IMG/VR virus record: IMGVR_UViG_2913167280_000001
Strand: one strand, 5' to 3'
Length of the DNA: 33,660 nucleotides
Source of the DNA: a virus
Taxonomy: Duplodnaviria; Heunggongvirae; Uroviricota; Caudoviricetes
Positions 1 to 32,606 of the stretch are shown here, piece after piece. The notes under the pieces are model-generated. The model was not told the origin of the DNA. It saw nothing but the letters and a program-made list of their open reading frames with translations, and made no database searches. Position 1 is the first letter of the stretch, and every line of letters begins with the position of its first letter. The translations under genes and the position numbers were made by a program.

Positions 1-132
1 AAAAGTTTGATGCTCAAAGAATTAAACTTCGTAATGAATTACGTGTTCACTCTTGAGACTTGGTATTCATTTATCGTCTTGCGACGTTAAGAATCCGTAT
101 CTTCGAGTGCCCACACAGATTGTCTGATAAAT

Positions 133-145
133 TGTTAAAGAGCAG
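133..145 (-). promoter_or_regulatory. rRNA operon leader boxA antitermination element
   Basis: Minus strand reads TGCTCTTTAACAA, the rrn boxA consensus, downstream of the rrn P2 promoter. The 16S gene is not in the window. Confidence 0.8.
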
Positions 146-183
146 TTGCGACGCGGCTTTCAGCTCAGCGGCGCGGGGTGTGC

Positions 184-211
184 ATAATACGCTTTCCCGC
201 TACAGAGTCAA
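184..211 (-). promoter_or_regulatory. rRNA operon promoter P2
   Basis: Minus strand has -35 TTGACT (206-211) and -10 TATTAT (184-189) with a 16-bp spacer, matching rrn P2 architecture. Confidence 0.8.
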
Positions 212-301
212 GCATTTTTTTGCTTTTCTCTGCCGGAATTCTCAGGAGAATCCCGCTGACCCGGCGGCGTGTTTGCCGTTGTTCCGTGTCAGTGGTGGCG
301 C

Positions 302-352
302 ATTATAGGGAGTTATTCTGAGCTGACAAGAGGAAATTTAAAATAATTTATC
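302..352 (-). promoter_or_regulatory. rRNA operon promoter P1 with upstream AT-rich UP element
   Basis: Minus strand has -35 TTGTCA (324-329) and -10 TATAAT (302-307) with a 16-bp spacer, preceded by an AT-rich tract (AAATTATTTTAAATTTCCTC) typical of the rrn P1 UP element. Confidence 0.85.
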
Positions 353-407
353 GTTCGTTCAATTCTTAAGCAAAACACCTTAAAAACGACCATTTCCGGT
401 TGGAAAT

Positions 408-440
408 TAGACAAAAAGCGAGCCCCGAAGGACTCGCTTG
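408..440 (-). terminator. intrinsic terminator downstream of clpB
   Basis: GC-rich stem of about 9 bp with one mismatch, followed by a T run on the minus strand, directly after the clpB stop at 447-449. Confidence 0.6.
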
Positions 441-446
441 TCTTAT

Positions 447-3020
447 TTACTGGACGGCGACGATCCGGTCTTCATTAACTTCCAGGCGAATAACTTTACC
501 TGGAACCAATTCACCAGACAGTATTTGCTGTGCCAGCGGGTTTTCGATCTGCTGCTGGATAGCACGTTTCAGAGGACGTGCACCATAGACCGGATCGTAA
601 CCGTTCTCGCTCAGCAGTTTCAGCGCCTCGTCAGAAATGTGGATTTCATAACCACGTTCTTCCAGACGTTTGTACAGACGTTTCAACTGAATCTGCGCAA
701 TCGACGCAATGTGCTGTTCACCCAGCGGATGGAAGACCACCACCTCATCAATACGGTTAATAAACTCCGGACGGAAGTTATGGCTTACCACACCGAGCAC
801 CAGCTCTTTCATGTGCGCATAATCCAGTTCACCGAAGCGTTCCTGAATCAAATCGGAACCGAGGTTAGAGGTCATAATGACAACCGTATTACGGAAGTCG
901 ACCGTTCTCCCCTGCCCGTCAGTCAGACGCCCATCATCCAGTACCTGCAACAGAATGTTGAAGACATCCGGATGTGCTTTTTCCACTTCATCCAGCAGGA
1001 TGACGGAATACGGACGACGACGCACCGCTTCGGTCAGGTAGCCACCTTCTTCATAACCGACATATCCCGGAGGCGCACCAACCAGACGAGACACCGAGTG
1101 TTTCTCCATAAACTCGGACATATCGATACGGACCATCGCCTCGTCGCTATCAAACATAAAGTTCGCCAGCGCCTTACAAAGTTCAGTTTTACCCACACCA
1201 GTTGGGCCGAGGAACAGGAATGAACCAATCGGGCGATTTGGATCCGCCAGCCCCGCACGGCTACGACGAATAGCGTTAGATACCGCATCAACCGCTTCGT
1301 TCTGACCAATAACGCGCTGGTGCAGTTCTTGCTCCATACGCAGCAGTTTTTCGCGCTCGCTTTCCATCATGCGAGAAACCGGAATCCCCGTCCAACGCGC
1401 CAGCACTTCAGCAATTTCGGCGTCGGTCACTTTATTACGCAACAGACGCATAGTTTTGCCTTCGAGCTGCGTTGCGGCTTCCAGTTGCTTTTCCAGTTCC
1501 GGGATTTTGCCGTATTGCAGTTCAGACATCCGCGCCAGGTCACCCACACGGCGAGCCTGTTCAATGGCGATTTTCGCCTGCTCCAGTTCCGCTTTAATGG
1601 TCTGTGTACCAGAGAGCGACGCTTTCTCTGCTTTCCACTCTTCTTCTAACTCGGAGTACTGACGTTCTTTGTCGCTCAGTTCTTCGTTGAGCATATCCAG
1701 GCGTTTTTTACTGGCTTCATCAGACTCTTTCATTAACGCCTGTTGTTCCAGTTTGAGCTGGATGATACGACGATCGAGTCGGTCGAGTTCTTCCGGTTTT
1801 GAGTCAATCTGCATACGAATGCTGGATGCTGCTTCATCGATCAGGTCGATGGCTTTATCCGGCAGCTGACGGTCAGCAATGTAGCGATGAGACAATGTCG
1901 CCGCTGCAACAATTGCCGGGTCAGTAATTTGCACATGGTGGTGCAGCTCGTAACGTTCTTTCAGGCCACGCAGAATAGCAATGGTGTCCTCAACAGAAGG
2001 CTCGGCAACAAACACTTTCTGGAAGCGACGTTCCAACGCAGCATCTTTTTCGATGTACTGGCGATATTCGTCCAGCGTCGTAGCACCCACACAGTGCAGT
2101 TCACCACGCGCCAGTGCCGGTTTCAGCATATTCCCGGCGTCCATTGCGCCATCGGCTTTACCTGCGCCGACCATGGTATGTAATTCGTCGATAAACAGGA
2201 TGACGTTGCCTTCCTGTTTGGAGAGATCGTTAAGCACGCCTTTTAAACGTTCTTCAAACTCACCGCGATATTTCGCCCCAGCCACCAGCGCGCCCATATC
2301 CAGCGCCAGTACGCGGCGGCCTTTCAGCCCTTCCGGCACTTCACCATTAATAATACGCTGCGCCAGACCTTCAACGATGGCAGTTTTACCAACACCAGGC
2401 TCACCAATCAGCACCGGGTTATTTTTAGTACGACGTTGCAGTACCTGAATGGTACGGCGAATTTCTTCATCACGACCAATCACCGGATCGAGTTTGCCTT
2501 GTTCGGCTCGTTCGGTAAGGTCGATGGTGTATTTTTTCAAAGCCTGACGTTGGTCTTCAGCTCCTTGATCATTCACGCTTTCACCTCCGCGCATTTGTTC
2601 AATCGCTTGAGTAATGTTGGCGGTAGTCGCCCCTGCTGCTTTCAGGATATCGGCCAGCGTGCCGCGAGACTCAAGTGCCGCCAGAACGAACAGTTCTGAC
2701 GAGATAAAGTTATCACCACGTTTTTGCGCCAGCTTGTCGCAAAGATTAAGAACGCGCACCAGATCCTGTGATGGCTGGACATCGCCACCTGTACCTTCAA
2801 CCTGTGGTAAACGGTTTAATGCCTGAGTGATATCTGTGCGCAACTGGCCAGCATTGATGCCAGCAGATGTTAATAAAGGACTAACCGAACCCCCTTCCTG
2901 ATTCAGCAGGGCGCTCATTAAATGAAGTGGTTCGATGAATTGGTTGTCGTGCCCGAGTGCAAGTGATTGGGCATCGGCAAGAGCAAGCTGGAATTTATTA
3001 GTAAGACGATCCAGACGCAT
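447..3020 (-). CDS. clpB: ClpB disaggregase (AAA+ chaperone), 857 aa
   Basis: Translation begins [18 protein letters not shown] at the ATG at 3018-3020 with a GGAGG Shine-Dalgarno; two Walker A ([16 protein letters not shown]) nucleotide-binding domains. The ORF-track start at 3032 is a non-ATG extension. Confidence 0.97.
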
Positions 3021-3058
3021 AACTCCTCCCATAACGGATCAAAGTTGCTACTGGAGAT

Positions 3059-3087
3059 TAAATGAGGTCATCCCTCAATTATTCAAG
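3059..3087 (-). promoter_or_regulatory. sigma-32 heat-shock promoter for clpB
   Basis: Minus strand reads CTTGAA, then a 14-bp spacer, then CCTCATTTA, a close match to the sigma-32 consensus (CTTGAA / CCCCATNTA), about 40 bp upstream of the clpB ATG. Confidence 0.65.
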
Positions 3088-3149
3088 GTTATTGACCAGA
3101 TTAATGTGAAAAGAAAATCACGCGTACCGGATCGTCTTGATTCTTTAGG

Positions 3150-3881
3150 TTATATCAGCCAAATGAAACTTGCCATACGACCGGTGATCTTGTCGCGACG
3201 ATAAGAGAAGAAAGTCTCATTTTCCGTATATGTACAACGGTCGCCGCCGAAAATTTGCTCAACACCAACGCTCGCCAGACGCTGTCGGGCAAGCTGATAA
3301 ATATCCGCCAGATACTTATCACCATGCTGAATGAAAGCTGTACTCGCGTTGGCGTCTACTTCCATAAACGCCTCGCGAACCTCCGGCCCCACTTCAAACG
3401 CGCGTGGACCGATTGCCGGCCCCAACCAGGTAAGAATGTTTTCGGGCTTATCGGCAAAGCAGGAAACCGTCTCTTCCAGCACGCCTGCGCACAGTCCACG
3501 CCAGCCAGCATGGGCAGCCGCGACTTCCGTTCCTGCCCGATTGCAAAACAGCACAGGCAGGCAATCGGCTGTCATTACGGCACAAACCGTGCCGGGTGTG
3601 TTGCTATACGAGGCATCCGCCCGTTTTGAGGTATAAGGTTCGCCAGTAAGCTTAAGCACATCTTTACCGTGTACCTGCTCAAGCCAGACCGGTTTTGAAG
3701 GCAAATTACCCGCAGCAAAAAGCCGCTTGCGATTTTCCTCGACGTGCTCCGGGTTATCACCACAATGAGCACCGAGGTTGAGCGAGTCGTAGGGCGGCAA
3801 GCTCACGCCGCCGACACGGGTAGAGCTACAGGCCGCAACACCTTTTGGCAGCGGCCACTGCGGGACAATCAGCTTACTCAT
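3150..3881 (-). CDS. pgeF: YfiH/PgeF family protein, 243 aa
   Basis: Full-length ORF in the conserved clpB-yfiH-rluD context; 4-nt overlap with the rluD stop. Confidence 0.85.
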   Translation of the reverse strand: MSKLIVPQWPLPKGVAACSSTRVGGVSLPPYDSLNLGAHCGDNPEHVEENRKRLFAAGNLPSKPVWLEQVHGKDVLKLTGEPYTSKRADASYSNTPGTVCAVMTADCLPVLFCNRAGTEVAAAHAGWRGLCAGVLEETVSCFADKPENILTWLGPAIGPRAFEVGPEVREAFMEVDANASTAFIQHGDKYLADIYQLARQRLASVGVEQIFGGDRCTYTENETFFSYRRDKITGRMASFIWLI

Positions 3882-4858
3882 AACCAGTCCACTTCATCCT
3901 TATGCTCTTCGAAATCGGCGCGCATCACCTCAATCAGCTCCACCATATCTTGTGGAATAGGCGCATGCCATTCCATTTCAATGCCGGAGATCGGGTGATA
4001 AAGACGCAGCATGGTTGCATGAAGCGCCTGACGATCAAACTTACGCAGCGTGGAGATAAACGCTTCCGAAGCACCTTTTGGCGGACGCGGACGGCCACCA
4101 TAAACCGGATCGCCCACCAGCGGATGGGTTATATGGGCCATATGCACGCGGATCTGGTGCGTACGTCCAGTTTCCAGACGCAGCCGCAGACGCGTGTGCA
4201 CACGGAAGTGTTCCATAATGCGATAGTGAGTGACCGCCGGTTTGCCCATCGGATGCACCGCCATATGAGTTCGTTTGGTCGGATGGCGACTGATTGGCTC
4301 GTCCACCGTGCCACCAGCAGTCATATGACCAATTGCTACCGCTTCATACTCACGAGTAATTTCACGTCGTTGCAGAGATTCCACCAGGCGCGTCTGGGCT
4401 GGAACGGTTTTTGCCACAACCATGAGGCCAGTGGTGTCTTTATCCAGACGATGGACAATACCCGCACGCGGTACATCGGCAATGGGCGGATAGTAATGAA
4501 GCAACGCATTCAATACCGTGCCATCCGGGTTACCCGCGCCAGGATGTACCACCAGGTCGCGCGGTTTATTAATGACGATAATGTCTTCATCTTCATAGAC
4601 GATATCCAGCGGGATATCCTGCGGTTCAAAACGCGCTTCTTCTTCAATCTCGGCGTTGATGGCCACCAGCTCGCCACCTAATACTTTTTCTTTCGGCTTA
4701 TCACAAACTTTGCCGTTAACCAGCACGCGCTGGTTGAGGATCCATTCTTTTATTCGCGAACGTGAATAATCCGGGAACATTTCGGCTAAAGCCTGATCTA
4801 AGCGTTGACCGAGTTGGTTTTCGGACACTGTTGCAGTGAGTTCTACTCGTTGTGCCAT
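3878..4858 (-). CDS. rluD: 23S rRNA pseudouridine synthase RluD, 326 aa
   Basis: RluA-family catalytic motif HRLDKDTTG preceded by an S4-like N-terminal region; divergent from bamD as in E. coli. Confidence 0.93.
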   Translation of the reverse strand: MAQRVELTATVSENQLGQRLDQALAEMFPDYSRSRIKEWILNQRVLVNGKVCDKPKEKVLGGELVAINAEIEEEARFEPQDIPLDIVYEDEDIIVINKPRDLVVHPGAGNPDGTVLNALLHYYPPIADVPRAGIVHRLDKDTTGLMVVAKTVPAQTRLVESLQRREITREYEAVAIGHMTAGGTVDEPISRHPTKRTHMAVHPMGKPAVTHYRIMEHFRVHTRLRLRLETGRTHQIRVHMAHITHPLVGDPVYGGRPRPPKGASEAFISTLRKFDRQALHATMLRLYHPISGIEMEWHAPIPQDMVELIEVMRADFEEHKDEVDWL

Positions 4859-4992
4859 ATATACTGCTTCTTCGTTTATCGTTGGGGTTTTACGGCTTTG
4901 CCGTTTAATATAGTGTGCTATTGTAGCTGGTCTTAACCGGGAGCAGGAACAGAGAATCTCCCGTATTACATTTTGAGGAAAGTCAAAACGTC

Positions 4993-5730
4993 ATGACGCG
5001 CATGAAATATCTGGTGGCAGCCGCCACACTAAGCCTGTTTTTGGCGGGTTGCTCGGGGTCAAAGGAAGAAGTACCTGATAATCCGCCAAATGAAATTTAC
5101 GCGACTGCACAACAAAAGCTGCAGGACGGTAACTGGAGACAGGCAATAACGCAACTGGAAGCGTTAGATAATCGCTATCCGTTTGGTCCGTATTCGCAGC
5201 AGGTGCAGCTGGATCTCATCTACGCCTACTATAAAAACGCCGATCTGCCGTTAGCACAGGCTGCCATCGATCGTTTTATTCGCCTCAACCCGACCCATCC
5301 GAATATCGATTATGTCATGTACATGCGTGGCCTGACCAATATGGCGCTGGATGACAGTGCGCTGCAAGGGTTCTTTGGCGTTGACCGTAGCGATCGCGAT
5401 CCTCAACATGCTCGAGCTGCGTTTAGTGACTTTTCCAAACTGGTGCGCGGCTATCCAAACAGCCAGTACACCACTGATGCAACCAAACGTCTGGTGTTCC
5501 TGAAAGATCGTCTGGCGAAATATGAATACTCCGTTGCAGAGTACTACACCGAACGTGGCGCATGGGTTGCCGTCGTCAACCGCGTCGAAGGCATGCTGCG
5601 CGACTACCCGGATACCCAGGCTACGCGTGATGCGCTGCCGCTGATGGAAAATGCTTACCGCCAGATGCAGATGAACGCTCAGGCTGAAAAAGTCGCGAAA
5701 ATTATTGCCGCTAACAGCAGCAACACTTAA
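4993..5730 (+). CDS. bamD: outer membrane protein assembly factor BamD (lipoprotein), 245 aa
   Basis: Signal peptide ending in a lipobox (LFLAGCSG); full-length match to remembered E. coli BamD. Confidence 0.95.
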
Positions 5731-5748
5731 CAGGTGTGATATACGCAA

Positions 5749-5777
5749 AACGGCAGCCCTGGAGCTGTCGTTTTTTT
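5749..5777 (+). terminator. intrinsic terminator after bamD
   Basis: Stem AACGGCAGC / GCTGTCGTT followed by a run of 7 T. Confidence 0.7.
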
Positions 5778-5946
5778 ATTCGATTTGAACGCTAACTAAA
5801 GCGATTCAGTCGCGACTGATCCTATCAAATATGGCTCGCTTTGAGACATTCCTCAAGTAAAAAAACACCTCTTCCTGCGATTTCTCACAAAAAAACTTCG
5901 TTGACAAAAAGTGACAAAATTATGAGATTTTCATCACACATTTTGA

Positions 5947-6342
<396 letters not shown>

Positions 6343-6365
6343 TCCTTTATATTGAGTGTATCGCC

Positions 6366-6389
6366 AACGCGCCTTCGGGCGCGTTTTTT
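6366..6389 (+). terminator. intrinsic terminator after raiA
   Basis: Perfect 8-bp stem AACGCGCC / GGCGCGTT with a TTCG loop and a T run. Confidence 0.85.
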
Positions 6390-6465
6390 GTAAAGCTAAC
6401 AAATTGTTTCTATTAGCTTATTTCTTATAAACATCCACAAACTGTCCACATCAGTAATGATATAC

Positions 6466-6494: not shown

Positions 6495-7301
6495 TTATGT
6501 AGCCGAAATGGTTGTGGTGATGGTCCCCCGAAGCCGCTGCGCAGCTACCTCAAAATAATGATCACTGGTTTCTATACCAATAAATTTTCGCCCTGCTTTC
6601 AGTGCAGCCACACCCGTTGTCCCTGACCCCATAAAAGGATCAAGGACTGTTCCGCCACTATTCGCAGTTCTGACCAGTTCTGCCATAAGTTCTTCTGGTT
6701 TTCCGGTCGGGTGCATTTTCTTTGATGGGATAACCGGGAACGTCATGCAGCCGTCGAACGGTCCCGAAGGCGATTTATCTAAATGGCCTTTACTGCCCCA
6801 GACGATGTATTCGCACTGATGCCGGAAATACCCCGTATGGGGTGTTCGTGACCCCCTTCCTTTGTTCCACGCAATGATGCCGCGCCATGTGAAACCACTG
6901 GCCTGAAATGCATCAGTTAAAGCTGGCAGTTGTCGCCAGTCAGTAAATACCAGGGCATAACCGCCCGGCCTGACTGCGCGGTGTGCCTGTGCCATCCATA
7001 ATTGTGTCCAGTAAGCCCACGAACGGGCATCCATGTTTTCACCCGCAAACCCATCAAAGCGATGAAGGCTCTCGCCGTTCAGATATTTTGCGTGGCTGCC
7101 CTGGTTGGTGCGTCCGGCCTTGTGTGTCGCGCCCGAACTGTAAGGCGGGTCAGTGATTAAGGCATCAATACTTTCTGGCTCAATCAGCGGCAATATTTCC
7201 AGCGCATTCCCACGACAGAGCGTGGCATTGTCAGTCTGATAAACCTTAGTGTGTTCCGGTGTATGTGCTGGTTGGTGCTGGATTGTGATCCCCACGGTCA
7301 T
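6495..7301 (-). CDS. beta-class DNA methyltransferase (N6-adenine or N4-cytosine), 268 aa
   Basis: DPPY catalytic motif at residues 51-54 lies N-terminal to the AdoMet-binding motif DPFMGSGTT (beta-class order). ATG at 7299-7301 with a GAGGAG Shine-Dalgarno. Confidence 0.85.
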   Translation of the reverse strand: MTVGITIQHQPAHTPEHTKVYQTDNATLCRGNALEILPLIEPESIDALITDPPYSSGATHKAGRTNQGSHAKYLNGESLHRFDGFAGENMDARSWAYWTQLWMAQAHRAVRPGGYALVFTDWRQLPALTDAFQASGFTWRGIIAWNKGRGSRTPHTGYFRHQCEYIVWGSKGHLDKSPSGPFDGCMTFPVIPSKKMHPTGKPEELMAELVRTANSGGTVLDPFMGSGTTGVAALKAGRKFIGIETSDHYFEVAAQRLRGTITTTISAT

Positions 7302-7443
7302 AACTCCTCATGTGTGTGGGGTGCTCGATGGCTCTCGTTATCTGGTTAAGTGTTTTGCAGCGCGGACATTTTATTTCAATGTAGTGAAATGAGGCGCGGG
7401 CAAGTAGTTTGTTGCAATTTTTGCATCGTACATTTTGCGTCAT
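7246..7443 (-). CDS. com: Com-like zinc-finger protein (Mu com family), about 65 aa
   Basis: Sequence MTQNVRCKNCNKLL...IEIKCPRCK carries the Cys4 pattern remembered from Mu Com (RCKNCNKLL...IEIRCPRCK). It overlaps the first 56 nt of the downstream methyltransferase gene. ATG at 7441-7443; the track start at 7452 is GTG. Confidence 0.75.
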   Translation of the reverse strand: MTQNVRCKNCNKLLARASFHYIEIKCPRCKTLNQITRAIEHPTHMRSYDRGDHNPAPTSTYTGTH

Positions 7444-7488
7444 TTGCGGCACCTCTTGTGTGGTTACTGCTGCCGATATGATAACAAA

Positions 7489-7526
7489 TTGATCGCTTTT
7501 ATCGATCGGTTTTATATTATCGATCT
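7489..7526. promoter_or_regulatory. cluster of three GATC (Dam) sites upstream of com
   Basis: GATC at 7491, 7504 and 7522, within 35 bp and 48-82 bp upstream of the com ATG, in the divergent intergenic region. Confidence 0.6.
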
Positions 7527-7982
7527 GTGTTTTCTATTTTGTTCATGGGGCTGTTTGGCCTCACTTGTGCTGTAGTTTTAATGCGGAGGCTTCAAGTGCA
7601 ATATTTAAAGGGAACACCATTACATCAGTCCCGATTTGCAAGTGTCAGGATTACATGTCCTTCAGAGTTTTCCTCTTCAATAGAGGAGTATTTTCAAAAT
7701 AATGGATTTGATATAGGTCGTGTGACTTGCTTCTCTGCGAATGCACCCGATATGCTTAGTGTTATGTTCGAATTGCTCTCACGGGCGAAAAAATTTGCAG
7801 GGGTTATTATGGGGTTGTTAAACAGGAATGATGTTGAAGTTGAGCTACACCTTTGTACCAGAGATGATGAGCCTAAAACTGCAAAGCTCAAATTAAGAAA
7901 CCTCAAAGATGTTGATGCGTGTGAGCGCCTGATTGATAAACTGGCTACTGTGGTAATAACGTCAAAGAAAAATGAAGAATAA
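7527..7982 (+). CDS. hypothetical protein, AT-rich accessory gene (start uncertain)
   Basis: ORF clearly lower in GC than its flanks, divergent from com. The track start is GTG; a GTG at 7596 preceded by GGAGG is another candidate start. No recognisable motif. Confidence 0.5.
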   Translation: MFSILFMGLFGLTCAVVLMRRLQVQYLKGTPLHQSRFASVRITCPSEFSSSIEEYFQNNGFDIGRVTCFSANAPDMLSVMFELLSRAKKFAGVIMGLLNRNDVEVELHLCTRDDEPKTAKLKLRNLKDVDACERLIDKLATVVITSKKNEE

Positions 7983-8014
7983 TCGGTAAGCCAACCACCC
8001 TCTCTGGAAATAAA

Positions 8015-8043
8015 AAGCCCGCGACTAATCCTGCGGGCTTTTT
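8015..8043. terminator. bidirectional intrinsic terminator
   Basis: Perfect 8-bp stem AAGCCCGC / GCGGGCTT flanked by an A5 run upstream and a T5 run downstream, 30 nt after the stop of the 7527-7982 ORF. Confidence 0.75.
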
Positions 8044-8536
8044 GCATTCAGGTTTGCGAGATAGGGTGCCTTATCGACCTTAACCCTGGCAACCGATTGA
8101 CGGGGGATTGCTCCCCCGTCGCGGTTTCCTTACTGCTTACACTGTAAGAACGCCGCAAACTCCGCTCCCCAGAAGCTCATCCGTATCTCACACAGCGAAC
8201 CGTGTAGCATCCAGATGATGAGGATTGCCGTCACGCAGAACGTGATGGCTATAAGCGATTTTTGCGACATAGCACTTGCTCCTTTTTTTGCAAAGGCGCT
8301 AAGCTCTTGCCCGCTTATTGATTACGTTGTGAAACGCCCAGAGTTGAACATAAGGTTTAGTTGGGCCTTTTTACATCTGGCCTTCGTGTTTGCTGTCCAG
8401 CCATCAGTCGAAAGGCGTCCGCGTGAATTCTAGCCTGCTTTTTTTTCTTGCTTCAATACGTTGACTAATTTCAACACTCTGTTGTGCATATCCTGAACGC
8501 AGACATTATTCAGTCACGCATTTGATACATGCTTCC

Positions 8537-8561
8537 GCCGGCGTTCGCGCCGGTTTTTTTT
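8537..8561 (+). terminator. orphan intrinsic terminator inside an ORF-poor region
   Basis: GC stem CCGGCG / CGCCGG followed by 8 T; no convincing protein-coding gene upstream. Confidence 0.55.
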
Positions 8562-8941
8562 CGTCCTGTTGTTGCGTAGATCGTCATGTGCGATCGAGGC
8601 GCGGCATTGATCCTTTTTTCAGTTTAATTTCGACTCTCAATTTTACGCAGGCCGCGCCGCGTCTGGCTTCGTTGTTTGACGATTTTTCTATGCGATCCTT
8701 TCGCGATCGTGTCTCGCCCCACGCAAAGCATGAAAACTCTTTTAATATCATGCGGTTTCGTTGACCCCGCCATTTATGGGATCGTAAAAAACTCTCTGAA
8801 AACTGAAAAAAATTTCAAAGCGTGAAATTTCAGATCTTCGCTTTTCCCTCAGTTGCTGCGCGGGCTGGCTGTCATTTTTGCACGGCAGAAAACTGAAAAA
8901 CTGTTTCGACACAAAACCCGCGGGTTGGAGGGGGTAGCGCG

Positions 8942-8986
8942 GTTTACGTCACCTCACGCTTTACGTCACACCGTTTACGTGGTGTG
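8942..8986. repeat. iteron-like direct repeats and an inverted repeat
   Basis: TTTACGTCAC at 8943-8952 and 8960-8969, TTTACGTGGT at 8974-8983; inverted repeat CACACC-N8-GGTGTG at 8967-8986. Confidence 0.6.
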
Positions 8987-9038
8987 CGCATACAGCGCCG
9001 GAATGGCACGCAGAACGCATTAATCAGGTGGCAGATAT

Positions 9039-9064
9039 GAAAACGCACGACCGGAGCCGTGCGT
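9039..9064 (-). terminator. putative terminator at the end of the tail operon
   Basis: Stem ACGCACG / CGTGCGT followed on the minus strand by 4 T, about 40 nt after the stop of the last tail gene. Confidence 0.4.
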
Positions 9065-9102
9065 TGCGTGATGGGCGTTTATGGGGGTTTTATGCCCGGT
9101 GA

Positions 9103-10800
9103 TCAGGCGATAAGGTCACCGTATTTTTCGCGCAGGCTCGTAGCCTGTTTGGCGTCTGCGGCAAGTTCGCTGCTGTTTGTTGGTGCGCCGGTGTTGCTGT
9201 GGGTGTGGTTTGCAGTGTGTGTGGCCAGCAACTGAACCAGATCCAGAATATCAATCAACAACGTCAGCAGATTAAGTCCGGATTTTTCCCGTGAGCCACC
9301 GCGACCAATAAATACTGTCGGGGCTGTAAACTCCAGACCGCCGTCCGCCCGGCATGTTCTGCGGCCTCCCACGTTTTCAGTAAGGTCGCGCTCAATCGTG
9401 GATGTCGCCCCTTTGAGTTTAGTCAGCAAATCCTGCGCTACCATCTGGATATGCTCACCGGCTGCGATCGCATAATGACCAGTAGTAATGTGTTCTGTCT
9501 GGCCTGTCATCAGCTTGCTGGTTCCCAGAACGCTGGTTATGTCGTTTGCCTGTACTGTTGTTGTTCTGGTTGTTGTTGTGCGTTCTTCCTGATCGCTGTT
9601 AATGGTTCGCCTGGCTGAATGCTCCCTGATTTGCTGATCGGTTTCTCTGTGCCAGCTTCCGTCAGTCGTGACACGCTGAAACACTTCTGCGCGCTGTTGC
9701 TGCAGCTGTTCGCCGGGCTTTACATCAGGCAGGTTATGGCCAGCGGGTAAGATTTGCCTGATGACAGGTTTATCCGGTCGTCCTTCAATGTTGGATATTT
9801 CCACGATGGTGCCAGCCGGCGGGTAGGCAAAACATCCCGCCTCACTGCCAGCCATGGGGACGGGGAGCGGTACTGCCGGGTAAACGGGCGTATCGCTTTT
9901 ATCGTTGCCGTTCTCATCAAGCAACTGCACATCGACGGCGTAGCGTGGGCGGAAACTGTCGGCCACATCGCCCAGGGTGGCGGGCTCCGTTGGTGCAATG
10001 ACGCGCGCCAGCCGGGTATGTAGCGTACCGCTGGCCAGTTCCGGGAACTGTGTTTCCATTTGTCTGCGTAATGGTGATTTGGAAACAGGGCTGCCCGTGG
10101 CGGTAAGGCGCTCCCATGTCAGGGTCATTTTCTCGTTGTTGAGGGCTACACGGGTAATGCGCCCGGCTGGAAGGTTCACGCCCGGTCGCACAGTTTCCAT
10201 AAACATGATGTCGATGCTGTTTCCGCCGCTTTGCCCGAGTGTGTACTGTTGCGGAATATCCGGCATTGTAATGCTGGCAAATCGTGAATCAGCTGCACTT
10301 CCCACAAATACAGAACCGTCCGGCATAGGGTGCCAGACGTAATCGTTGATACTGAATGCTCGCCCCAGTTGGCTGAGCAGCTGTGCTCCGCTGCCGCTGT
10401 GGGTGATGTAGGGAGTTGGTATACTGGCATAATCCGCATCCGGAGTGATAAAAACGATACCGCTTTGTCGCCCCAGATTATCGAGTACCCCCCGCAACGT
10501 CGGGTGTTGCATGGAGCAAGGGAAATCAAAATCCAGCACAGCAGCCGCTTCACGAATAAAAAGGCGACGTGAGCCATTTTCAGCAGGTTGATCGCGCTCA
10601 ATGTAGCCGGAGAAATAGCGCCATGCTTCACCGTCACGGCCGAGATCAATTTGTACCATTGCGCCGGCAAGGCTGTGTTCGGGTGACAGATTGTTAACAG
10701 AAATGAAGCCACGACCGGCAGCATTCAGGGTAAGAACAAGGCTTATATCGGCAATTTCCACCCATTCGCCATTAATCATGCAGCGTTGTATCAATTTCAT
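9103..10800 (-). CDS. tail spike protein with a gpV/gp5-type OB-fold domain and an N-terminal extension (possible hub-spike fusion), 565 aa
   Basis: Residues about 306-350 (PVPMAGSEAGCFAYPPAGTIVEISNIEGRPDKPVIRQIL) resemble the conserved spike OB-fold motif; C-terminal HTANHTHS resembles the histidine tip motif of P2 gpV. Last gene of the tail operon, ATGA-coupled to the upstream gene. Confidence 0.6.
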   Translation of the reverse strand: MKLIQRCMINGEWVEIADISLVLTLNAAGRGFISVNNLSPEHSLAGAMVQIDLGRDGEAWRYFSGYIERDQPAENGSRRLFIREAAAVLDFDFPCSMQHPTLRGVLDNLGRQSGIVFITPDADYASIPTPYITHSGSGAQLLSQLGRAFSINDYVWHPMPDGSVFVGSAADSRFASITMPDIPQQYTLGQSGGNSIDIMFMETVRPGVNLPAGRITRVALNNEKMTLTWERLTATGSPVSKSPLRRQMETQFPELASGTLHTRLARVIAPTEPATLGDVADSFRPRYAVDVQLLDENGNDKSDTPVYPAVPLPVPMAGSEAGCFAYPPAGTIVEISNIEGRPDKPVIRQILPAGHNLPDVKPGEQLQQQRAEVFQRVTTDGSWHRETDQQIREHSARRTINSDQEERTTTTRTTTVQANDITSVLGTSKLMTGQTEHITTGHYAIAAGEHIQMVAQDLLTKLKGATSTIERDLTENVGGRRTCRADGGLEFTAPTVFIGRGGSREKSGLNLLTLLIDILDLVQLLATHTANHTHSNTGAPTNSSELAADAKQATSLREKYGDLIA

Positions 10801-11372
10801 GTTTTCCCTTCCTCTTTCACGCTCCCGATGCCAACAGCATCCAGACCAGAGCCAACGGCATCATTGATTTTTTTCCAGAACGAACTTTGCGTATTCATGC
10901 CTTTGTCTGGTGCCTGTTCGCTGCCATTCTGGGTCTGCTGTCTGGCGATGGTTTTCTGCGAACCGCTGCGTGCGGATGCTTTCTCTGGCACGCTTAATTT
11001 TTCCCTGAGAGTAAAGGTGATCTGCCAGTGCATTTTTCCCTGTTGTTCCGTGGCATCAATGCCACCAGAAAATACCCCCTGTCGCATATTGATTGCCTTC
11101 GCGGTAGCGTTAGCAATGCGATAGGTTTTTTTAGCACCGTTGCTTTCTGTTGCCTCCGCAAGCTGAAAAATACGGGTCAGAATAGCTTCATCGTTAAAAT
11201 CAATAACCCCCGACACGCGCAGCTCTTTAGCCTTGTTTCCCTGCTGGGCGCTCGTGGTGCTGGTTGACTGTCCGGACATATCTTTGTCCGGTAGTTGCAT
11301 GGTGGCGCTGACGGTGATGTTGCGCAGCAGAATGGCTTCTCCGTCAAGCGCAAGGACAATCATCTGGGTCAT
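10797..11372 (-). CDS. putative tail/baseplate protein, 191 aa (family uncertain)
   Basis: Translationally coupled between an unknown gene and the spike gene; no secure motif. Confidence 0.3.
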   Translation of the reverse strand: MTQMIVLALDGEAILLRNITVSATMQLPDKDMSGQSTSTTSAQQGNKAKELRVSGVIDFNDEAILTRIFQLAEATESNGAKKTYRIANATAKAINMRQGVFSGGIDATEQQGKMHWQITFTLREKLSVPEKASARSGSQKTIARQQTQNGSEQAPDKGMNTQSSFWKKINDAVGSGLDAVGIGSVKEEGKT

Positions 11373-25886: not shown

Positions 25887-26597
25887 TTACGTGCCCTGCA
25901 ACGCGCGCAGTCTTGCGGCAATGCGCTGGCGCAGGGTTTTCACCTGAATTTTGGGATGCAGCCAGGCAGCCCGTTCCAGGCACTGGTCGGCCTGTTGCAG
26001 TCTCTCCGGATCGTTAATTGCGCTGGCCTGTGGCTTGCCGTCATCGCCGCGCAGCAGCAGGATGCCTGCAAAGCGCCAGTAGCGGGCAGCAAGGCGTTCA
26101 TTCACGCGCCATTTGTCGCGGATTTTTTCAAACACCTGCTGAAAATATGGCGCGATACTGTTCCCGCGTTCAGCTTCGTTTTCTGCCCATTCAAGAATGA
26201 AATGGGCCACAAACGTTGGCAGCTCGCTTTTGAAGTTCTCCGGCGTCTTTTGCCCCTGCTCAATGGCAATGTCAGCCCACCGCAGCGCCATCTCAAACTG
26301 CCCGGTATCGAACAGCCAGATGATGCAGTACACCAGAATGGGATTCTGATAGACGCGTTCCCCCTCCAGATAAGCCTGTGCGTGTGGCAGCCAGCGGGGC
26401 AGCAGCGTGTTCCGCTTGAATTCCAGCTTGTCAGACAGCAGCTCCATGTTGTGCAGTTGTCTGACATCGTTATCCAGTGCCAGCAGCTTAATGTGCTGAC
26501 TCTCTGTGCTGACGGCGCGCCCGTCTGTTCTGGTCATGAGCGCCGCACGGCGCTCATCCATCTGTCGGGCACGTTGTCGCTGCATTGGCGTTGGCAT
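25887..26597 (-). CDS. terminase small (endonuclease) subunit, P2 gpM-like, 236 aa
   Basis: Block LLPRWLPHAQAYLE...ILVYCIIWLFDTGQFEMALRWADIAIEQGQKTP resembles the remembered conserved gpM-family region; sits in an O-N-M-L order. Confidence 0.75.
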   Translation of the reverse strand: MPTPMQRQRARQMDERRAALMTRTDGRAVSTESQHIKLLALDNDVRQLHNMELLSDKLEFKRNTLLPRWLPHAQAYLEGERVYQNPILVYCIIWLFDTGQFEMALRWADIAIEQGQKTPENFKSELPTFVAHFILEWAENEAERGNSIAPYFQQVFEKIRDKWRVNERLAARYWRFAGILLLRGDDGKPQASAINDPERLQQADQCLERAAWLHPKIQVKTLRQRIAARLRALQGT

Positions 26598-26614
26598 ACC
26601 GTGCGCTCCGTTTA

Positions 26615-27628
26615 TCAGGCGATGGTGACCGCAGACTCATCCACGGCAGCATATAAATCCGGATCGCCCAGGGCGTACCCCTCATAACGCCAGTATGAGT
26701 TTTCGAACTGTTTGCGATCGCCCACATCTTCTGCCTTGCGGCGGCGGGAGCCTTTCAGCGTCAGGATCTGCAGGTTTGGCAGCATGGTCACCACCATACG
26801 TTTGCCCGGCATAAACGGCGGAATGATGGCCTTGCGGCCCGCAATGTTCTTCGTCAGCAACTGTGCGGCCACTTTTTCGGTGGGCTTGTCCTCTTTGTTG
26901 TAGAGGCGTAGTTCTTCAGCAGCCACAAGGTCTGCGCCAACCAGTACAGTAAGGCGAGGATCGTTGTGATATTGCGCCGGGATATAAGTGCGGATCAGGT
27001 CTGAGGCCATGGCATCAAGGCTGACATAATCACCGCCTTCGCCCAGGGTAACGGCGTCCGTCAGAATACGGGAGGTATTGCCGGGCTGTTCTCCCCACTT
27101 TTTGGCGATTTCATGCCAGCCGACGTTAACGTCTTCGCCGTTCGGGTGACTTTCCGGGTCAGAGTTTTCAGCAGCCTCTTTACCGTTAAAGCCAATGCGC
27201 AGCATGTCCAGCGCAAAGTTGGTGACGGCGGCGGAGTTCATCAGGTTGAAAAATTCCTGCGGGCTGCCGGCATTCGCCCAGATGGCGAGTTGTTCCCAGG
27301 TGATCACGCAGCAGGAATCAGTTTCAACGAGTTTAAATTCGTTGCCTTTGATGCCCGAACCTTTAGCGAAACGACCGCTTTTCACGCGACCGGTGCGCAG
27401 CGTGGATTCGCCCACGGTGACGACCTGCCCTTGCGGGTGCGGAACGTCCATGCAGGTGATGAAACTCAGAAATTCCGTGCTTTCCAGCAGGGCTTTGCGC
27501 AGGGCAATACTGCGTGGCTCGGTCAGCGAAAAGAAACGATCGCTTGATTTCCCGCAGTCACTGAATGTTTTTTGCAGTTCGCTGATGTACTGATTAACCA
27601 GCTTTTGTGCTTCTGGTGTCATGTTCAT
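26615..27628 (-). CDS. major capsid protein, P2 gpN-like, 337 aa
   Basis: Conserved blocks GFNGKEAAENSD, VGW, LGEGGDYVSLDA and DPRLTVLVG match remembered P2 gpN. Confidence 0.85.
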   Translation of the reverse strand: MNMTPEAQKLVNQYISELQKTFSDCGKSSDRFFSLTEPRSIALRKALLESTEFLSFITCMDVPHPQGQVVTVGESTLRTGRVKSGRFAKGSGIKGNEFKLVETDSCCVITWEQLAIWANAGSPQEFFNLMNSAAVTNFALDMLRIGFNGKEAAENSDPESHPNGEDVNVGWHEIAKKWGEQPGNTSRILTDAVTLGEGGDYVSLDAMASDLIRTYIPAQYHNDPRLTVLVGADLVAAEELRLYNKEDKPTEKVAAQLLTKNIAGRKAIIPPFMPGKRMVVTMLPNLQILTLKGSRRRKAEDVGDRKQFENSYWRYEGYALGDPDLYAAVDESAVTIA

Positions 27629-27642
27629 TGCGTTCTCTCCGG

Positions 27643-28533
27643 TTACACCAGGTTAAAAGTTTCGCCACCGGCCGGATTGTTGCCCGGCAGCTTCGTGGCG
27701 TCCTTGCTGAGTTCAGCAAATGCGGTTTCCATACTGGTAACCTTCTCCGCGATGGCGTTCACTGTGGAGAACAGCTTTTCGCCCTGCTCGGTGGTCAGCG
27801 TGAAGGTTTTGTCGTCCTTGTTGTTCTGTTCTGCGTTGTCCTGCCCCTGATCGCCGGTGCTGCCTTCCGGCTTGTTATCACCGGTATCTTTCGGGGCATC
27901 CTTCGCGCTGAACTGCGCGACGTTTTCTTCCAGTTTGTTCAGGCGTTCGCCGGTTTTGTTGATGGCGTCCATCAACTGACCGAACTGTTTTTCGTTCATG
28001 TCGTTTTCCTGTTTGTTGCGTCCCACGGAGAAAAGGCCGGAAAAGAAACTGCGTTTGGCCTGCTCGTCGTCAGACTGCAGCGTGAAATTCAGTTCTTCTG
28101 CATTTCCCATGTGAATGGAGTCTCCCTGCGAAAATTGCAGGCGGGTGGTGTTGATGCTGGCCGGTGTGTCAGTCACGGCGATACCGGATACAAAGAATTT
28201 GCCTGTTCCCAGGTAGTTTTCCTTTACCTCTATGGAGGTGAAAAGTTTTTGCCCGGCCTCGTTGGCTTCGGTCAGAAAGCGGTTGGGTATCAGGCGGGCT
28301 TTCAGCTGCACTTTATCGCCGACTTTTTCCGCCTTCAGTGCATCAACAAGACCATAGTTATTGGTGAAAGCACGCCAGCCGGCGCTGGCATGAAACGGCC
28401 AGAGCATGGCGGTGTGTTCGTCCGGGTTATAAACCTCGGCGGCATCCGTCAGCCACTTTGGATCAATTTCCCGACCGTCGATGGTGGGGCCTGAAGTGGC
28501 TACGACCACCCAGTCTGTTTTCAGTTTCGACAT
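27643..28533 (-). CDS. capsid scaffolding protein, P2 gpO-like, 296 aa
   Basis: N-terminal region (TIDGREI, YGLVDALKAEK), TGKFFVSGIAVTDTPAS and METAFAELS match remembered gpO blocks; first gene of the operon divergent from the terminase gene. Confidence 0.8.
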   Translation of the reverse strand: MSKLKTDWVVVATSGPTIDGREIDPKWLTDAAEVYNPDEHTAMLWPFHASAGWRAFTNNYGLVDALKAEKVGDKVQLKARLIPNRFLTEANEAGQKLFTSIEVKENYLGTGKFFVSGIAVTDTPASINTTRLQFSQGDSIHMGNAEELNFTLQSDDEQAKRSFFSGLFSVGRNKQENDMNEKQFGQLMDAINKTGERLNKLEENVAQFSAKDAPKDTGDNKPEGSTGDQGQDNAEQNNKDDKTFTLTTEQGEKLFSTVNAIAEKVTSMETAFAELSKDATKLPGNNPAGGETFNLV

Positions 28534-31542: not shown

Positions 31543-31607
31543 TGTGCGGTATGGGGAAAGAGCGGGTAAAATCGGTGGCAGTAAAACGCTGTTCCGGGAG
31601 GTGGAAA

Positions 31608-31865
31608 ATGCGCAGACAGAAAGCGCGATGTCATTGCTGCGGTGCACATGCAGTGATTGAGAAAACAGCCTGGAAAACCGATCAGTTTGCTGATGTGTAT
31701 TACCGTTGCACCCGTCTCGAGTGCGGACATACCTGGGTGATGAATCTGACCTACTCGCACACACTGGTGCCCAGCGGGCTGGAGAATGGTGTGTTAAAGC
31801 TGTTGATTGAGCGGATGCGTCCGGAAGAAAAACAAATGGCTCTGGAGTTGTTGCAGGCCGGATAG
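31608..31865 (+). CDS. Ogr/Delta-family zinc-finger late-gene activator (putative), 85 aa
   Basis: Cys pattern C-x-C-C...C-x4-C (RCHCCGAH...YYRCTRLECGHTW) resembles Ogr/Delta; GGAGG Shine-Dalgarno before the ATG at 31608. The track ORF starts earlier at a GTG overlapping the portal gene. Confidence 0.55.
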   Translation: MRRQKARCHCCGAHAVIEKTAWKTDQFADVYYRCTRLECGHTWVMNLTYSHTLVPSGLENGVLKLLIERMRPEEKQMALELLQAG

Positions 31866-32293: not shown

Positions 32294-32304
32294 GATTACT
32301 TCCA

Positions 32305-32592: not shown

Positions 32593-32606
32593 AGTTACTC
32601 CTGTTT

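Follow-up and report, generated by a model that had tools for sequence, protein, structure and literature searches.

The kilobase at 8047-9100 very probably consists of two modules of an HP1/ESSI-2-type prophage, namely a hok/sok-type cassette (8031-8456) and the cos region (~8612-9035). Both modules are ordinary, known prophage parts, and the assignment gives a function to an 830-bp gap in which PGAP places no feature in every relative inspected. The region was found in 51 of 5426 complete E. coli genomes. Throughout, the window denotes the whole stretch of DNA that was analysed, which is 33,660 nucleotides long.

The preliminary description of this DNA had pointed to ORF-poor, cis-acting DNA with repeated protein-binding-type motifs and a GATC cluster beyond chance, and our analysis upholds that view. 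A packaging site was not among the readings it proposed. All the sequence features that it listed are present, with coordinates off by one or two bases. The count of seven GATC sites is correct; they start at 8579, 8592, 8609, 8694, 8705, 8780 and 8833, so that 8694 had been placed exactly and the other six (given as 8580, 8593, 8611, 8706, 8781 and 8832) were shifted. These seven sites fall within 255 bp, where about one is expected from the local composition, and they form the GATC-richest 260-bp stretch of the 33.7-kb window, which has an overall density of 3.4 per kb. The TTTACGT-type repeats begin at 8943, 8960 and 8974 (the sequence being TTTACGTCAC in two of them and TTTACGTGGT in the third), and the inverted repeat AATTTCA-N5-TGAAATT occupies 8811-8829 exactly as described. 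The palindrome AACCCGCGGGTT exists but lies at 8915-8926 instead of 8914-8925, and the two copies of GAAAACTGAAAAA start at 8798, previously given as 8799, and at 8888. The plus-strand intrinsic terminator at 8537-8561 has the stem GCCGGCG/CGCCGGT followed by a T run. The whole window has just three copies of the motif AAACTGAAAAA (0.06 expected), and all of them are in 8047-9100 (8615-8625 on the minus strand, 8800-8810 and 8890-8900 on the plus strand). It is literally true, as had been claimed, that the minus strand has no ORF of at least 60 codons, but a real hok/Gef gene of 46 aa was thereby overlooked; the plus-strand ORFs in 8047-9100 are 72 and 80 aa long. The features of the two modules and their surroundings are as follows.

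8012-8043, no strand: bidirectional intrinsic terminator, a perfect 13-bp stem with an A run and a T run on either side
8031-8456, minus strand: hok/sok-type type I toxin-antitoxin cassette, comprising the hok mRNA region and the promoter in front of it
8130-8270, minus strand: hok/Gef toxin ORF of 46 aa, identified by Pfam, PHROG and PGAP in relatives
8495-8608, plus strand: spacer module with the GATCs at 8579 and 8592 and the terminator 8537-8561, the latter from the terminator scan
8579-8836, no strand: seven GATC (Dam) sites, five of them in the cos left arm, conserved in relatives
~8612-9035: predicted cos region, conserved and non-coding, supported by synteny, homology to known termini, terminase lineage and satellites
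8612-8916, minus strand: predicted left (cosB-like) arm, colinear with the left ends of ESSI-2, ev015 and SW5
8615-8625, minus strand: distal inverted copy of AAACTGAAAAA, one of only three in the window
8653-8668, no strand: GC block CGCGCCGCGTCTGGCT, kept in L030, satellites, ESSI-2 and SW5
8798-8829, no strand: second copy of AAACTGAAAAA (8800-8810, plus strand) joined to the inverted repeat 8811-8829, conserved in L030 and satellites
8888-8900, plus strand: cos-proximal copy of AAACTGAAAAA, ~20 nt away from the predicted cut and reading TTTTTCAG on the packaging strand
8917-8937, minus strand: predicted cos cleavage region and cohesive end, CTACCCCCTCCAACCCGCGGG on the minus strand, overlapping the palindrome at 8915-8926
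8943-8983, no strand: right-arm repeats kept in L030 and satellites, three TTTACGT immediately ahead of the predicted cut, which read ACGTAAA on the packaging strand
9040-9063, minus strand: intrinsic terminator of the late (tail) operon, a 10-bp stem followed by UUUUC
9103-10800, minus strand: orf35-type baseplate gene, the last late gene and synteny anchor (PHROG 2258 'baseplate protein', E 6e-232)

The position of the conserved element is that of a cos site of the HP1 lineage. The genes for a tail fibre, a DUF4376 protein, a 237-aa protein, HP1_ORF34 and the PHROG 2258 baseplate protein follow the order of HP1 orf31-35; the neighbour of the baseplate gene (10797-11372) matches Pfam HP1_ORF34 with an E of 1e-53, and tblastn with the product of 9103-10800 matched HP1 orf35 and its homologues. 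In the HP1 annotation, orf35 is followed by 192 bp, the right end, and then cosL, attP and int. Likewise, the linear records of ESSI-2, ESSI2_ev015, ev129, ev239, SW5 and SW3, and those of HP1, HP2, Pmp6, phiO18P, K139 and VPUSM8, end 180-400 bp away from an orf35 homologue. The element has the placement of an HP1/ESSI-2-type cos, 150-400 bp past the orf35-type gene and the late terminator on the attP/int side, and the predicted cut is 166-186 bp from the baseplate stop codon, with 192 bp for the HP1 counterpart. The 78-nt segment 9025-9102 holding the late terminator folds at -22.9 kcal/mol (z -3.6), its stem at 9040-9063 has compensatory changes in the relative prophages L030 (C>T with G>A) and L006, and HP1, ESSI-2 and SW5 have a terminator at the equivalent position. 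The opinion that such a region is unexpected between a tail operon and accessory genes was wrong, as HP1-lineage phages keep cos exactly there.

Because blastn of 8440-9110 at distant sensitivity gave no match in the phage collection, the tie to known phages was made through the baseplate protein and direct pairwise alignment. The minus strand of the window is colinear with the ESSI-2 junction (65.5% over 171 nt, pairwise blastn E 1.4e-11) and also aligns with SW5 (pairwise E 2e-4). In the multiple alignment, GCGCTAC, the C-rich tract, TTTTG..TCG..TTTTTCAGTTTT and further blocks coincide. The ESSI-2 record carries the identical 15 nt CTACACCGCACCCGC at both ends, cosL of phiO18P is annotated at 1-16, and the ev015 record runs from ...GGCGCTAC directly into a sequencing adapter, which identifies this sequence as a physical DNA end. 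The predicted cut at 8917-8937 aligns with the terminal repeat of ESSI-2, with the ev015 end, and with the SW5 record junction and the annotated phiO18P cosL CTCATCCGCTCCCGCC. We infer the cut site from this alignment, at only ~65% identity to ESSI-2. The motifs around it recur at similar places. TTTTT(T)CAG lies inward of the left end, by 19-36 nt in the window, L030, the satellites, ESSI-2, ev015 and HP1, and by ~46 nt in P2. The shorter core CTGAAAAA of the distal motif copy is equally far from cos (~297-305 nt) in L030, the satellites and ESSI-2, and the 8798-8829 element takes the form GAATTTCAC...TTTTTTTCAG in ESSI-2 and ev015. At the position of the right-arm repeats before the ends, HP1 has the repeats CACGTAAA and CACGGAAA, and SW5 has GACGGAA repeats.

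The terminase points to the same lineage. The proteins gpM and gpP are encoded at 25887-26597 and 28728-30515 (Pfam Phage_term_smal and Terminase_6N/6C/5). The best matches of the small subunit are Yersinia phage 324, the ESSI-2 group, SW5/SI7 and the Vibrio/Aeromonas HP1-like phages, and P2 and 186 are absent from the best 40 of 169 records. Judged by sequence comparison, the small terminase is thus of the ESSI-2/HP1 lineage and not of the P2 lineage. The element is also shared with satellites. Three P4-like elements (L031, L047 and L058) carry it beside hok; L058 encodes a Toprim primase, an integrase and Ogr/Delta according to a Pfam scan, L031 has the same PGAP annotations, and each of these two has an iteron block of its own (GGTTACA repeats) adjoining its own primase. 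Satellite identity to the window is 34-58% at 8600-8800, 64-74% at 8800-8900 and 92-96% at 8900-8950, and the helper-satellite match includes a perfect 45-nt run at 8914-8958 covering the predicted cut, where identity is highest. P2 and P4 have essentially only the cos signal in common, and defence or cargo hotspots adjoin their cos (PMC9122126).

Comparison with related prophages, a check that the preliminary description had named, revealed that the non-coding part and its GATCs are conserved. Among 29 distinct relatives, we found no coding signal in the conserved part: frameshifts or stops often interrupt the small ORFs, third positions show no excess of changes, and no PHROG family was matched. 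A decayed gene, which had been named as the finding that would overturn the earlier interpretation, was rejected on these grounds.

We propose that the P2-family terminase (gpM and gpP) would recognise ~8612-9035 and cut it in a staggered manner, producing cohesive ends, before packaging. Read on the minus strand, the order agrees with HP1, phiO18P and ESSI-2 and comprises the orf35-type gene, the terminator (9063-9040), three ACGTAAA repeats (8983-8943), the predicted C-rich cut (~8937-8917) and a left arm of ~300 bp, containing two direct copies of TTTTTCAG, the inverted repeat, the GC block and the distal inverted motif copy. The left arm 8612-8916 would be the first ~300 bp of the left end of the mature genome and, by analogy with lambda cosB, probably binds the small terminase subunit together with host bending proteins. 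The three TTTACGT and the three AAACTGAAAAA copies are probably conserved arm motifs serving as terminase or host-factor sites. Past the left arm follows a variable cargo hotspot reaching the attachment site, which here holds hok, a hypothetical gene, and com with a DNA methyltransferase. Conservation stops at the left at ~8609-8612, and the cargo that relatives exchange just left of ~8609 includes hok, a YafO toxin-antitoxin, an ATP-dependent nuclease, DUF4875, and MTase with Com.

The hok/sok-type cassette is cargo of the prophage. The 8130-8270 ORF scored 30.9 bits against Pfam PF01848 HOK_GEF (cut-off 22) and gave an E of 8.5e-23 against PHROG 251, and PGAP annotates a "Hok/Gef family protein" at the equivalent position in relatives. 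The segment 8031-8444 is 82-85% identical to loci annotated as 'MokW-like host killing' or 'Hok/Gef' in the phages Chuche, P88 and 500465-2 and in Stx phages. A consensus scan located a hok promoter-like site, TTGAAG-18-TAGAAT, on the minus strand, with the -35 at 8456 and the -10 ending at 8427. The terminator at 8012-8043 (-20.2 kcal/mol, z -4.5), for which Rfam returned leader-terminator look-alikes only, ends both the plus-strand gene 7527-7982 and the minus-strand hok mRNA.

A replication origin, composed of iterons and an AT-rich, GATC-rich unwinding region under Dam/SeqA like oriC or P1 oriR, had been proposed in the preliminary description and would suit the three direct TTTACGT repeats, the A-rich motifs with seven GATCs in 255 bp, and the strong conservation without coding capacity. 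However, 8047-9100 contains no DnaA box TTATCCACA with up to one mismatch, and the repeats are common to satellites that use their own Toprim primase and different iterons. The replication origin of P2 and 186 is inside gene A, and a relative prophage of 96.5% identity has, beyond the window end, a gene for a rolling-circle replication endonuclease of the P2 gpA type. Given that position and sequence fit known genome termini instead, we consider an origin extremely unlikely. We also give very little weight to a model in which the true cos is in the P2 position, in the Q-ogr gap (31543-31608), and 8612-9035 is another conserved cis site. The early region and the head genes are indeed of the P2 family, with ogr and Q adjacent; the gap holds GGTATGGGGAAAGAGCGGG, which agreed with the P2 cohesive end at 12 of 19 positions in our own comparison, and GGGGAAAG, also found in the P2 cohesive end, and the satellite likewise has CGGGTAAAATC upstream of its delta gene. 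Yet chance alone should yield an 8-mer match in 67 kb of sequence (both strands), the ogr ribosome-binding site shares a gap that measures just 66 bp, and the 19-nt P2/186 cohesive-end consensus GGCG(A/T)GGCGGGGAAAGCA(C/T) was not found anywhere in the window with up to three mismatches. Moreover, terminase lineage and tail-end synteny are those of ESSI-2/HP1, with ends after orf35. Arm sites of attP were rejected, as cargo genes separate the element from the prophage end ~2 kb away, and relatives that share the element integrate at different sites, among them raiA and flk. The prophage encodes ParM and ParR, and ParMR centromeres are situated just upstream of parM; a centromere was set aside, since the match to the termini of ESSI-2, SW5 and phiO18P fits a packaging site better. 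By-eye inspection of the repeats against CRP, IHF, OxyR, CpxR, TyrR and PurR motifs and the Ogr motif TGT-N12-ACA found none that fits. An IMG/VR contig end at window-equivalent 8807 was judged to be an assembly break and not a terminus.

The spacer module 8495-8608 is confined to hok-carrying relatives: L001 and L003-L007 conserve it, other cargo takes its place in L030 and L032, and the satellites lack it. Its clean intrinsic terminator without a gene upstream, the conservation of 8497-8565 next to a variable stretch just upstream, and a promoter-like site, TTGAGG-N16-TATAAA, read by eye from the alignment at a fitting distance in L003-L007, might suggest one or more small RNA genes, for example a ~70-nt plus-strand RNA ending at 8537-8561. 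This idea, also raised in the preliminary description, is very improbable. The consensus scan found no convincing plus-strand promoter before the terminator in the window itself, the module folds no better than shuffled sequence (z -0.8), its distribution is limited as described, and such an RNA would account for at most ~70 of 1050 bases. The covariance-model scan that had been suggested matched no described sRNA family in the region: at the gathering score of Rfam 15, the sole match in the whole window was RyfD at 3001-3139, and with E up to 10, 7900-9250 gave only chance-level matches (E 0.14 or weaker) on terminators. A Dam-sensitive transcriptional control region for the cargo genes without a packaging role, with a phase-variable promoter like those of pap, agn43, gtr or Mu mom, could account for GATC tetranucleotides that are better conserved than their surroundings and for the GATC-N7-GATC pair with an altered spacer in L030. 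In L030 and L032, what follows immediately downstream on the minus strand is variable cargo, and a separate triple-GATC cluster is found upstream of com in the prophage analysed here. This reading is hard to reconcile, though, with the lack of any sigma-70-like promoter on either strand of 8460-9100 in the consensus scan and with a hok promoter that is hok's own. The homologous arms in ESSI-2, SW5, phiO18P and K139 adjoin attP and int instead of cargo, and the homology to termini and the satellite sharing would be left unexplained; we regard it as very unlikely.

The GATC cluster is real and under selection. All seven GATCs are retained in six E. coli/E. albertii relatives at 87-97% identity, and among the 29 distinct relatives 55% of the non-GATC columns in 8570-8844 vary, as against one of the 20 positions of the five core GATCs. 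In L030, the GATC-N7-GATC pair is kept and the sequence of its spacer is changed. Related phages also have left arms enriched in GATC, with 7 sites in the window, 5 in L030 and 2-4 in phages with defined ends, compared with 0 in the satellites. Packaging alone does not explain the cluster, because the satellites lack any GATC. As a speculative possibility, to which we assign a low probability, the conserved left-arm GATCs (often AAGGATC) could make the binding of terminase or a host factor dependent on Dam or SeqA and time packaging against replication, from which the satellites would escape, having lost every GATC. If true, this would be a cos-phage counterpart of the control of P1 pac, which has seven GATC-containing hexamers and is cleaved in dependence on Dam methylation. 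A literature search on Dam control of cos sites found nothing relevant. The modestly new observation is a cos left arm that is GATC-rich across HP1-lineage phages and GATC-free in satellites.

The predicted start and end of the mature genome of this prophage family would aid the ordering of assemblies and the design of transduction or phagemid tools. The rule that a cargo or defence hotspot lies beside cos would be extended from P2/P4 to an HP1/ESSI-2-type coliphage with a differently placed cos, and the shared cos core points to a matching family of P4-like satellites.

In toxin ORF, mRNA region, promoter and terminator, the cassette shows no notable difference from known hok/sok loci (R1 hok/sok, chromosomal hok/gef and prophage mokW/hokW), which likewise have a 46-aa Hok/Gef ORF, a homologous mRNA region of ~400 nt with promoter and terminator, and occurrence as prophage cargo. 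The predicted cos most resembles that of HP1-lineage Peduoviridae (Haemophilus HP1, Aeromonas phiO18P, Cronobacter ESSI-2, Escherichia ESSI2_ev015, Salmonella SW5 and Vibrio K139), where it occupies the same place after orf33-34-35 and a terminator and before cargo, attP or int. The layout is the same, with ACG(T/G)AAA repeats, a C-rich cut (CTAC...CCCGC) and TTTTG..TTTTTCAG, followed by a non-coding left arm of ~300 bp that likewise has a second TTTTTCAG, a CCAG.CCGCGCC block and several GATCs, and the lineage of the small terminase subunit is shared. In comparison with ESSI-2, the nearest record with a defined end, identity is only ~65%, and the C-rich core is CTACCCCCTCCAACC here versus CTACACCGCACCCGC; the paper on the ESSI-2 coliphage does not describe its termini. 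A large cargo hotspot (hok, com with MTase, and others) separates the arm from att here, whereas HP1 has only 250 bp. The ends are defined in some HP1-lineage records and, for the present prophage family, predicted from sequence comparison.

The cos of P2 and P4, a 19-nt cohesive end GGCGAGGCGGGGAAAGCAC used by helper and satellite, is served by the same terminase family as here, and is likewise G/C-rich and followed by TTTTTTCAG ~46 nt inside the left end. It also has a core common to the helper and P4-like satellites and an adjoining variable cargo or defence hotspot (PMC9122126). In P2, however, cos is located between A and the portal gene Q and adjoins Q, whereas here it would follow the tail genes, 22 kb from Q. 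Lambda cos (cosQ-cosN-cosB, with R sites and an IHF site) provides a working analogy only, without implied homology of sequence or proteins, in which a nicking site is joined on the first-packaged side by repeated small-terminase sites and a bend, and elements on the other side act when packaging finishes. P1 pac is a packaging site with about seven clustered Dam sites, similar in number to those at the predicted cos. Unlike the predicted cos, it belongs to a headful (pac) phage, and its GATCs flank the cut on either side within TGATCA/G hexamers, whereas the GATCs described here are one-sided, differ in their sequence context, which is often AAGGATC, and are missing from the satellites with the same site.

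The region at 8047-9100 very probably comprises, as judged from sequence comparison, a hok cassette and, in its lineage-normal position, the cos region of a prophage of HP1/ESSI-2 type. Host enterobacterial chromosome occupies window 1-6400 (clpB with the RyfD sRNA, then rluD, bamD and raiA), and the rest of the window, starting at about 6450, is a Peduoviridae (P2-family) prophage on the minus strand. RyfD (Rfam RF02768, 125 bits; 3001-3139, minus strand), in the place upstream of clpB that host chromosome would lead one to expect, is the sole gathering-score Rfam match in the window. The closest complete-genome relative of the prophage, 96.5% identical, is in E. coli STEC313, where a gpA-type replication endonuclease, cox, a repressor and an integrase beside pheL follow past the equivalent of the window end. 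The features of the prophage are as follows.

6495-7301, minus strand: DNA methyltransferase, the first prophage gene right of the chromosome junction
7246-7452, minus strand: Com zinc-ribbon regulator
7527-7982, plus strand: hypothetical gene
8012-8043: strong bidirectional terminator at the end of the hok cassette
8130-8270, minus strand: Hok/Gef toxin ORF, 46 aa
-35 at 8456 and -10 ending at 8427, minus strand: hok promoter
9103-10800, minus strand: orf35-type baseplate gene, right of the region
10797-11372, minus strand: HP1_ORF34 gene, then tail fibres and the remaining tail genes
25887-28533, minus strand: P2-type head genes (capsid, scaffold, small terminase)
28728-31542, plus strand: large terminase and portal

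Right of the portal gene follow ogr, an Rrf2 regulator and ParR/ParM. This integrating P2-family prophage carries an actin-type partition pair (StbA_N, ParM_N, Plasmid_stab_B) together with the Rrf2 regulator (31934-33660, minus strand; 15804-17755 in L033) between replication gene A and ogr/portal, the slot where P2 carries tin/old. At the other end, three GATC sites (7491, 7504, 7522) lie in ATCGATC-type repeats (7486-7525) directly upstream of com (7452, minus strand), and in the com operon (6495-7452) a PF01555 DNA methyltransferase gene comes after the Com zinc-ribbon gene. This arrangement is similar to that of the Dam/OxyR-controlled com-mom promoter in phage Mu, although an ordinary N6/N4 methyltransferase stands where Mu has Mom.

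The preliminary description had called the region ORF-poor. No long ORF is indeed present, but the 46-aa toxin ORF had been overlooked. Hok/Gef or MokW-like loci annotated in P2-like and Stx phages match window 8031-8444 at 77-85% identity. The comparison with relatives reveals the cassette to be a mosaic module: one leader variant is common to the window and prophage L001, another to prophages L003-L007. The adjoining conserved spacer (8495-8608) holds a plus-strand intrinsic terminator (8537-8561) with no identifiable upstream gene. In L003-L007 a promoter-like TTGAGG-N16-TATAAA site lies about 40 nt upstream of this terminator; the window and L001 are without it. The spacer might encode a short RNA, or it might act as an insulator against cargo-side transcription entering cos.

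Of 5426 complete E. coli genomes, 51 contain the stretch at about 8495-9100, which also occurs in E. albertii and in about 20 IMG/VR contigs; no feature is annotated in it in the relatives inspected. Its conservation exceeds that of the neighbouring hok gene, and 8790-9040 is almost unchanged. The stretch is not protein-coding: many of 29 distinct relatives have disrupted versions of the small ORFs, variation falls evenly on the codon positions, and the PHROGs comparison gave no match. In L030 and L032, relatives with other cargo, a YafO toxin-antitoxin pair replaces all DNA left of about 8609, and other relatives carry an ATP-dependent nuclease, DUF4875 or a RuvC-family protein further left. 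These swaps delimit a conserved core of about 8612-9100 that borders a cargo hotspot. The relatives occupy different chromosomal sites. The PGAP name of the gene preceding the YafO toxin gene (4292-5071 in L030, 3270-3896 in L032), 'iron-sulfur cluster assembly scaffold protein SufA', is probably a mis-annotation; at this location a cognate antitoxin or other cargo protein is more likely. One draft contig (L020/L054, IMGVR_UViG_2579779084_000005) ends at the equivalent of window 8807, within the AAACTGAAAAA/inverted-repeat block and away from the predicted cut, which we read as an assembly break.

Genes right of the core correspond to the late-operon end of HP1 (orf31 fibre, orf32, orf33, orf34 and orf35 baseplate), whose right genome end lies 192 bp after orf35 and is followed by cosL, attP and int. 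With the window baseplate protein as tblastn query, a homologue was found 180-400 bp from the linear-record end in ESSI-2, ESSI2_ev015, ev129, ev239, SW5, SW3, HP1, HP2, Pmp6, phiO18P (whose record has an annotated cohesive end), K139 and VPUSM8. The location, previously considered unexpected, is normal for cos in this lineage. Three records indicate that such ends are genuine: that of ESSI-2 both begins and finishes with the 15-nt sequence CTACACCGCACCCGC, the SW5 record opens within the same motif, and in the ev015 record ...GGCGCTAC runs straight into a transposase adapter, indicating a physical DNA end. That record (NC_049395.1, Escherichia phage ESSI2_ev015) starts at 1-47 with the reverse complement of the Nextera adapter CTGTCTCTTATACACATCTGACGCTGCCGACGA..., a contamination that incidentally marks the physical right end of virion DNA. 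The window minus strand, ...GACGTAAACCGCGCTACCCCCTCCAACCCGCGGGTTTTGTGTCGAAACAGTTTTTCAGTTTTC..., is colinear with the ESSI-2 junction, ...AAAAACGGCACTACACCGCACCCGCCTGCAAGTTTTGGATCGCAAAATTTTTTCAGTTTTG... (65.5% over 171 nt, pairwise E 1.4e-11); SW5 also matches colinearly, but more weakly. A multiple alignment carries the homology through the next ~300 bp, with left-arm blocks CCAG.CCGCGC, a second TTTTTCAG that has the inverted repeat beside it, ATTAAAAGAGTTTT, CCAGACGCGGCGCGGC and, further out, an inverted CTGAAAAA. The alignment places the predicted cut at about 8917-8937, at a distance of 166-186 bp from the stop codon of the baseplate gene. In ESSI-2, a small ORF directly past the cos arm is preceded by a near-consensus LexA box, TACTGTGTTTATATACAGT, some 340 nt in from the left end, which brings to mind the tum antirepressor of phage 186 and its SOS control.

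Three related ~12-kb P4-like elements were found by a blastn match in E. coli STEC367 and an IMG/VR pattern scan. A Pfam scan of L058 (IMGVR_UViG_2740892423_000020) identified a Toprim primase, an integrase and an Ogr/Delta gene, and L031 has the same gene set by PGAP annotation; these two also contain hok, a GGTTACA iteron block of their own and a stretch homologous to window 8612-9065. Satellite identity to the window climbs from 34-58% across the distal arm (8600-8800) through 64-74% at 8800-8900 to 92-96% at 8900-8950, and 8914-8958 matches perfectly over 45 nt. A satellite must share the packaging signal of its helper, and identity peaking at the predicted cut fits a cos, whereas an origin or promoter would not predict such a pattern. 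For P2 and P4, cos was reported as essentially the only homologous region, and cargo hotspots adjoin cos (PMC9122126). Two traits seen in L058 (1-4030 and 8940-9260), and also in L031 and L047, are a block of about 15 GGTTACA/TGTAACC iterons between int and delta and a P2-family major capsid gene belonging to the satellite itself (L058 2299-3423, Pfam E 6.5e-44). The capsid gene is unusual for a P4-type satellite.

These data bear on the functions initially proposed for the region. A replication origin is the least probable of them, since the region contains no DnaA boxes, the STEC313 relative has a gpA-type replication endonuclease, and the repeats are common to satellites with other iterons. 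Small RNA genes are scarcely more credible: Rfam covariance-model scans gave no relevant match in the region, the window has no convincing promoter for the terminator at 8537-8561, and the spacer module holding it is confined to hok-carrying relatives. We consider a Dam-controlled promoter similarly improbable because a consensus scan of the region found no promoter. The prophage might instead carry its cos at the P2 position beside Q, where the 66-bp Q-ogr gap has GGGGAAAG in common with the P2 end. This, too, is very unlikely, because the window has no match to the P2 cohesive end within 3 mismatches, and the terminase lineage and synteny point the other way. The nearest counterparts of the window small terminase come from Yersinia phage 324, the ESSI-2 group, SW5/SI7 and HP1-like phages of Vibrio and Aeromonas; P2 is absent from the best 40 of 169 records. 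The initial observation is confirmed, all listed sequence features being present within 0-2 bases of their reported positions, and its interpretation is largely replaced.

The GATC cluster is real and under selection. Its seven sites (8579, 8592, 8609, 8694, 8705, 8780, 8833) fall in 255 bp, where about one is expected, and no other 260-bp stretch of the window reaches as many. Across 8570-8844 in 29 distinct relatives, 55% of non-GATC columns vary, against 1 of the 20 positions of the five core GATC sites, and the divergent L030 keeps a GATC-N7-GATC pair despite a changed spacer sequence. Every true phage examined is GATC-rich after cos.

GATC sites observed in the first 250-350 nt after cos (0.5-1.3 expected per element)
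Window: 7
L030 (relative with other cargo): 5
ESSI-2: 3
ev015: 4
SW5: 4
HP1: 2
K139: 4
phiO18P: 4
Three satellites: 0 each

Summed over six less-related lineages, 24 GATC sites were observed against 6.9 expected, many in the form AAGGATC. As the satellites have none, GATC sites are not needed to share the cos core. They could possibly serve Dam-/SeqA-sensitive arm binding, belong to a GATC-containing protein site, or be unrelated to packaging; a literature search for Dam control of cos sites found nothing. This lineage-wide enrichment of the cos left arm, missing from satellites, is the main point of interest, and the rest is of low interest.

From the observed anatomy and homology of the cos region, we infer that gpM and gpP would bind the left arm late in infection, with the three AAACTGAAAAA/TTTTTCAG motifs at about 20, 110 and 300 nt from the cut, the last inverted, as candidate sites. 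AAACTGAAAAA occurs three times in the window, always inside the region (0.06 expected). The inverted repeat at 8811-8829 is probably a bending or host-factor site. Terminase would nick both strands in the C-rich core at about 8917-8937 and package leftwards in window coordinates, leaving the ACGTAAA repeats (8943-8983) on the presumed last-packaged side, with a possible role in the terminal cut. The late operon ends in the terminator hairpin at 9040-9063, supported by its fold and by compensatory changes in L030 and prophage L006, with equivalents in HP1, ESSI-2 and SW5. The sequence around the HP1 end follows the same grammar as the window, with CACGTAAA and CACGGAAA repeats before the end and TCCTTCCCCACC... 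and TTTGTGTTTTTTCAG after it; in P2, TTTTTTCAG lies about 46 nt in from the left end.
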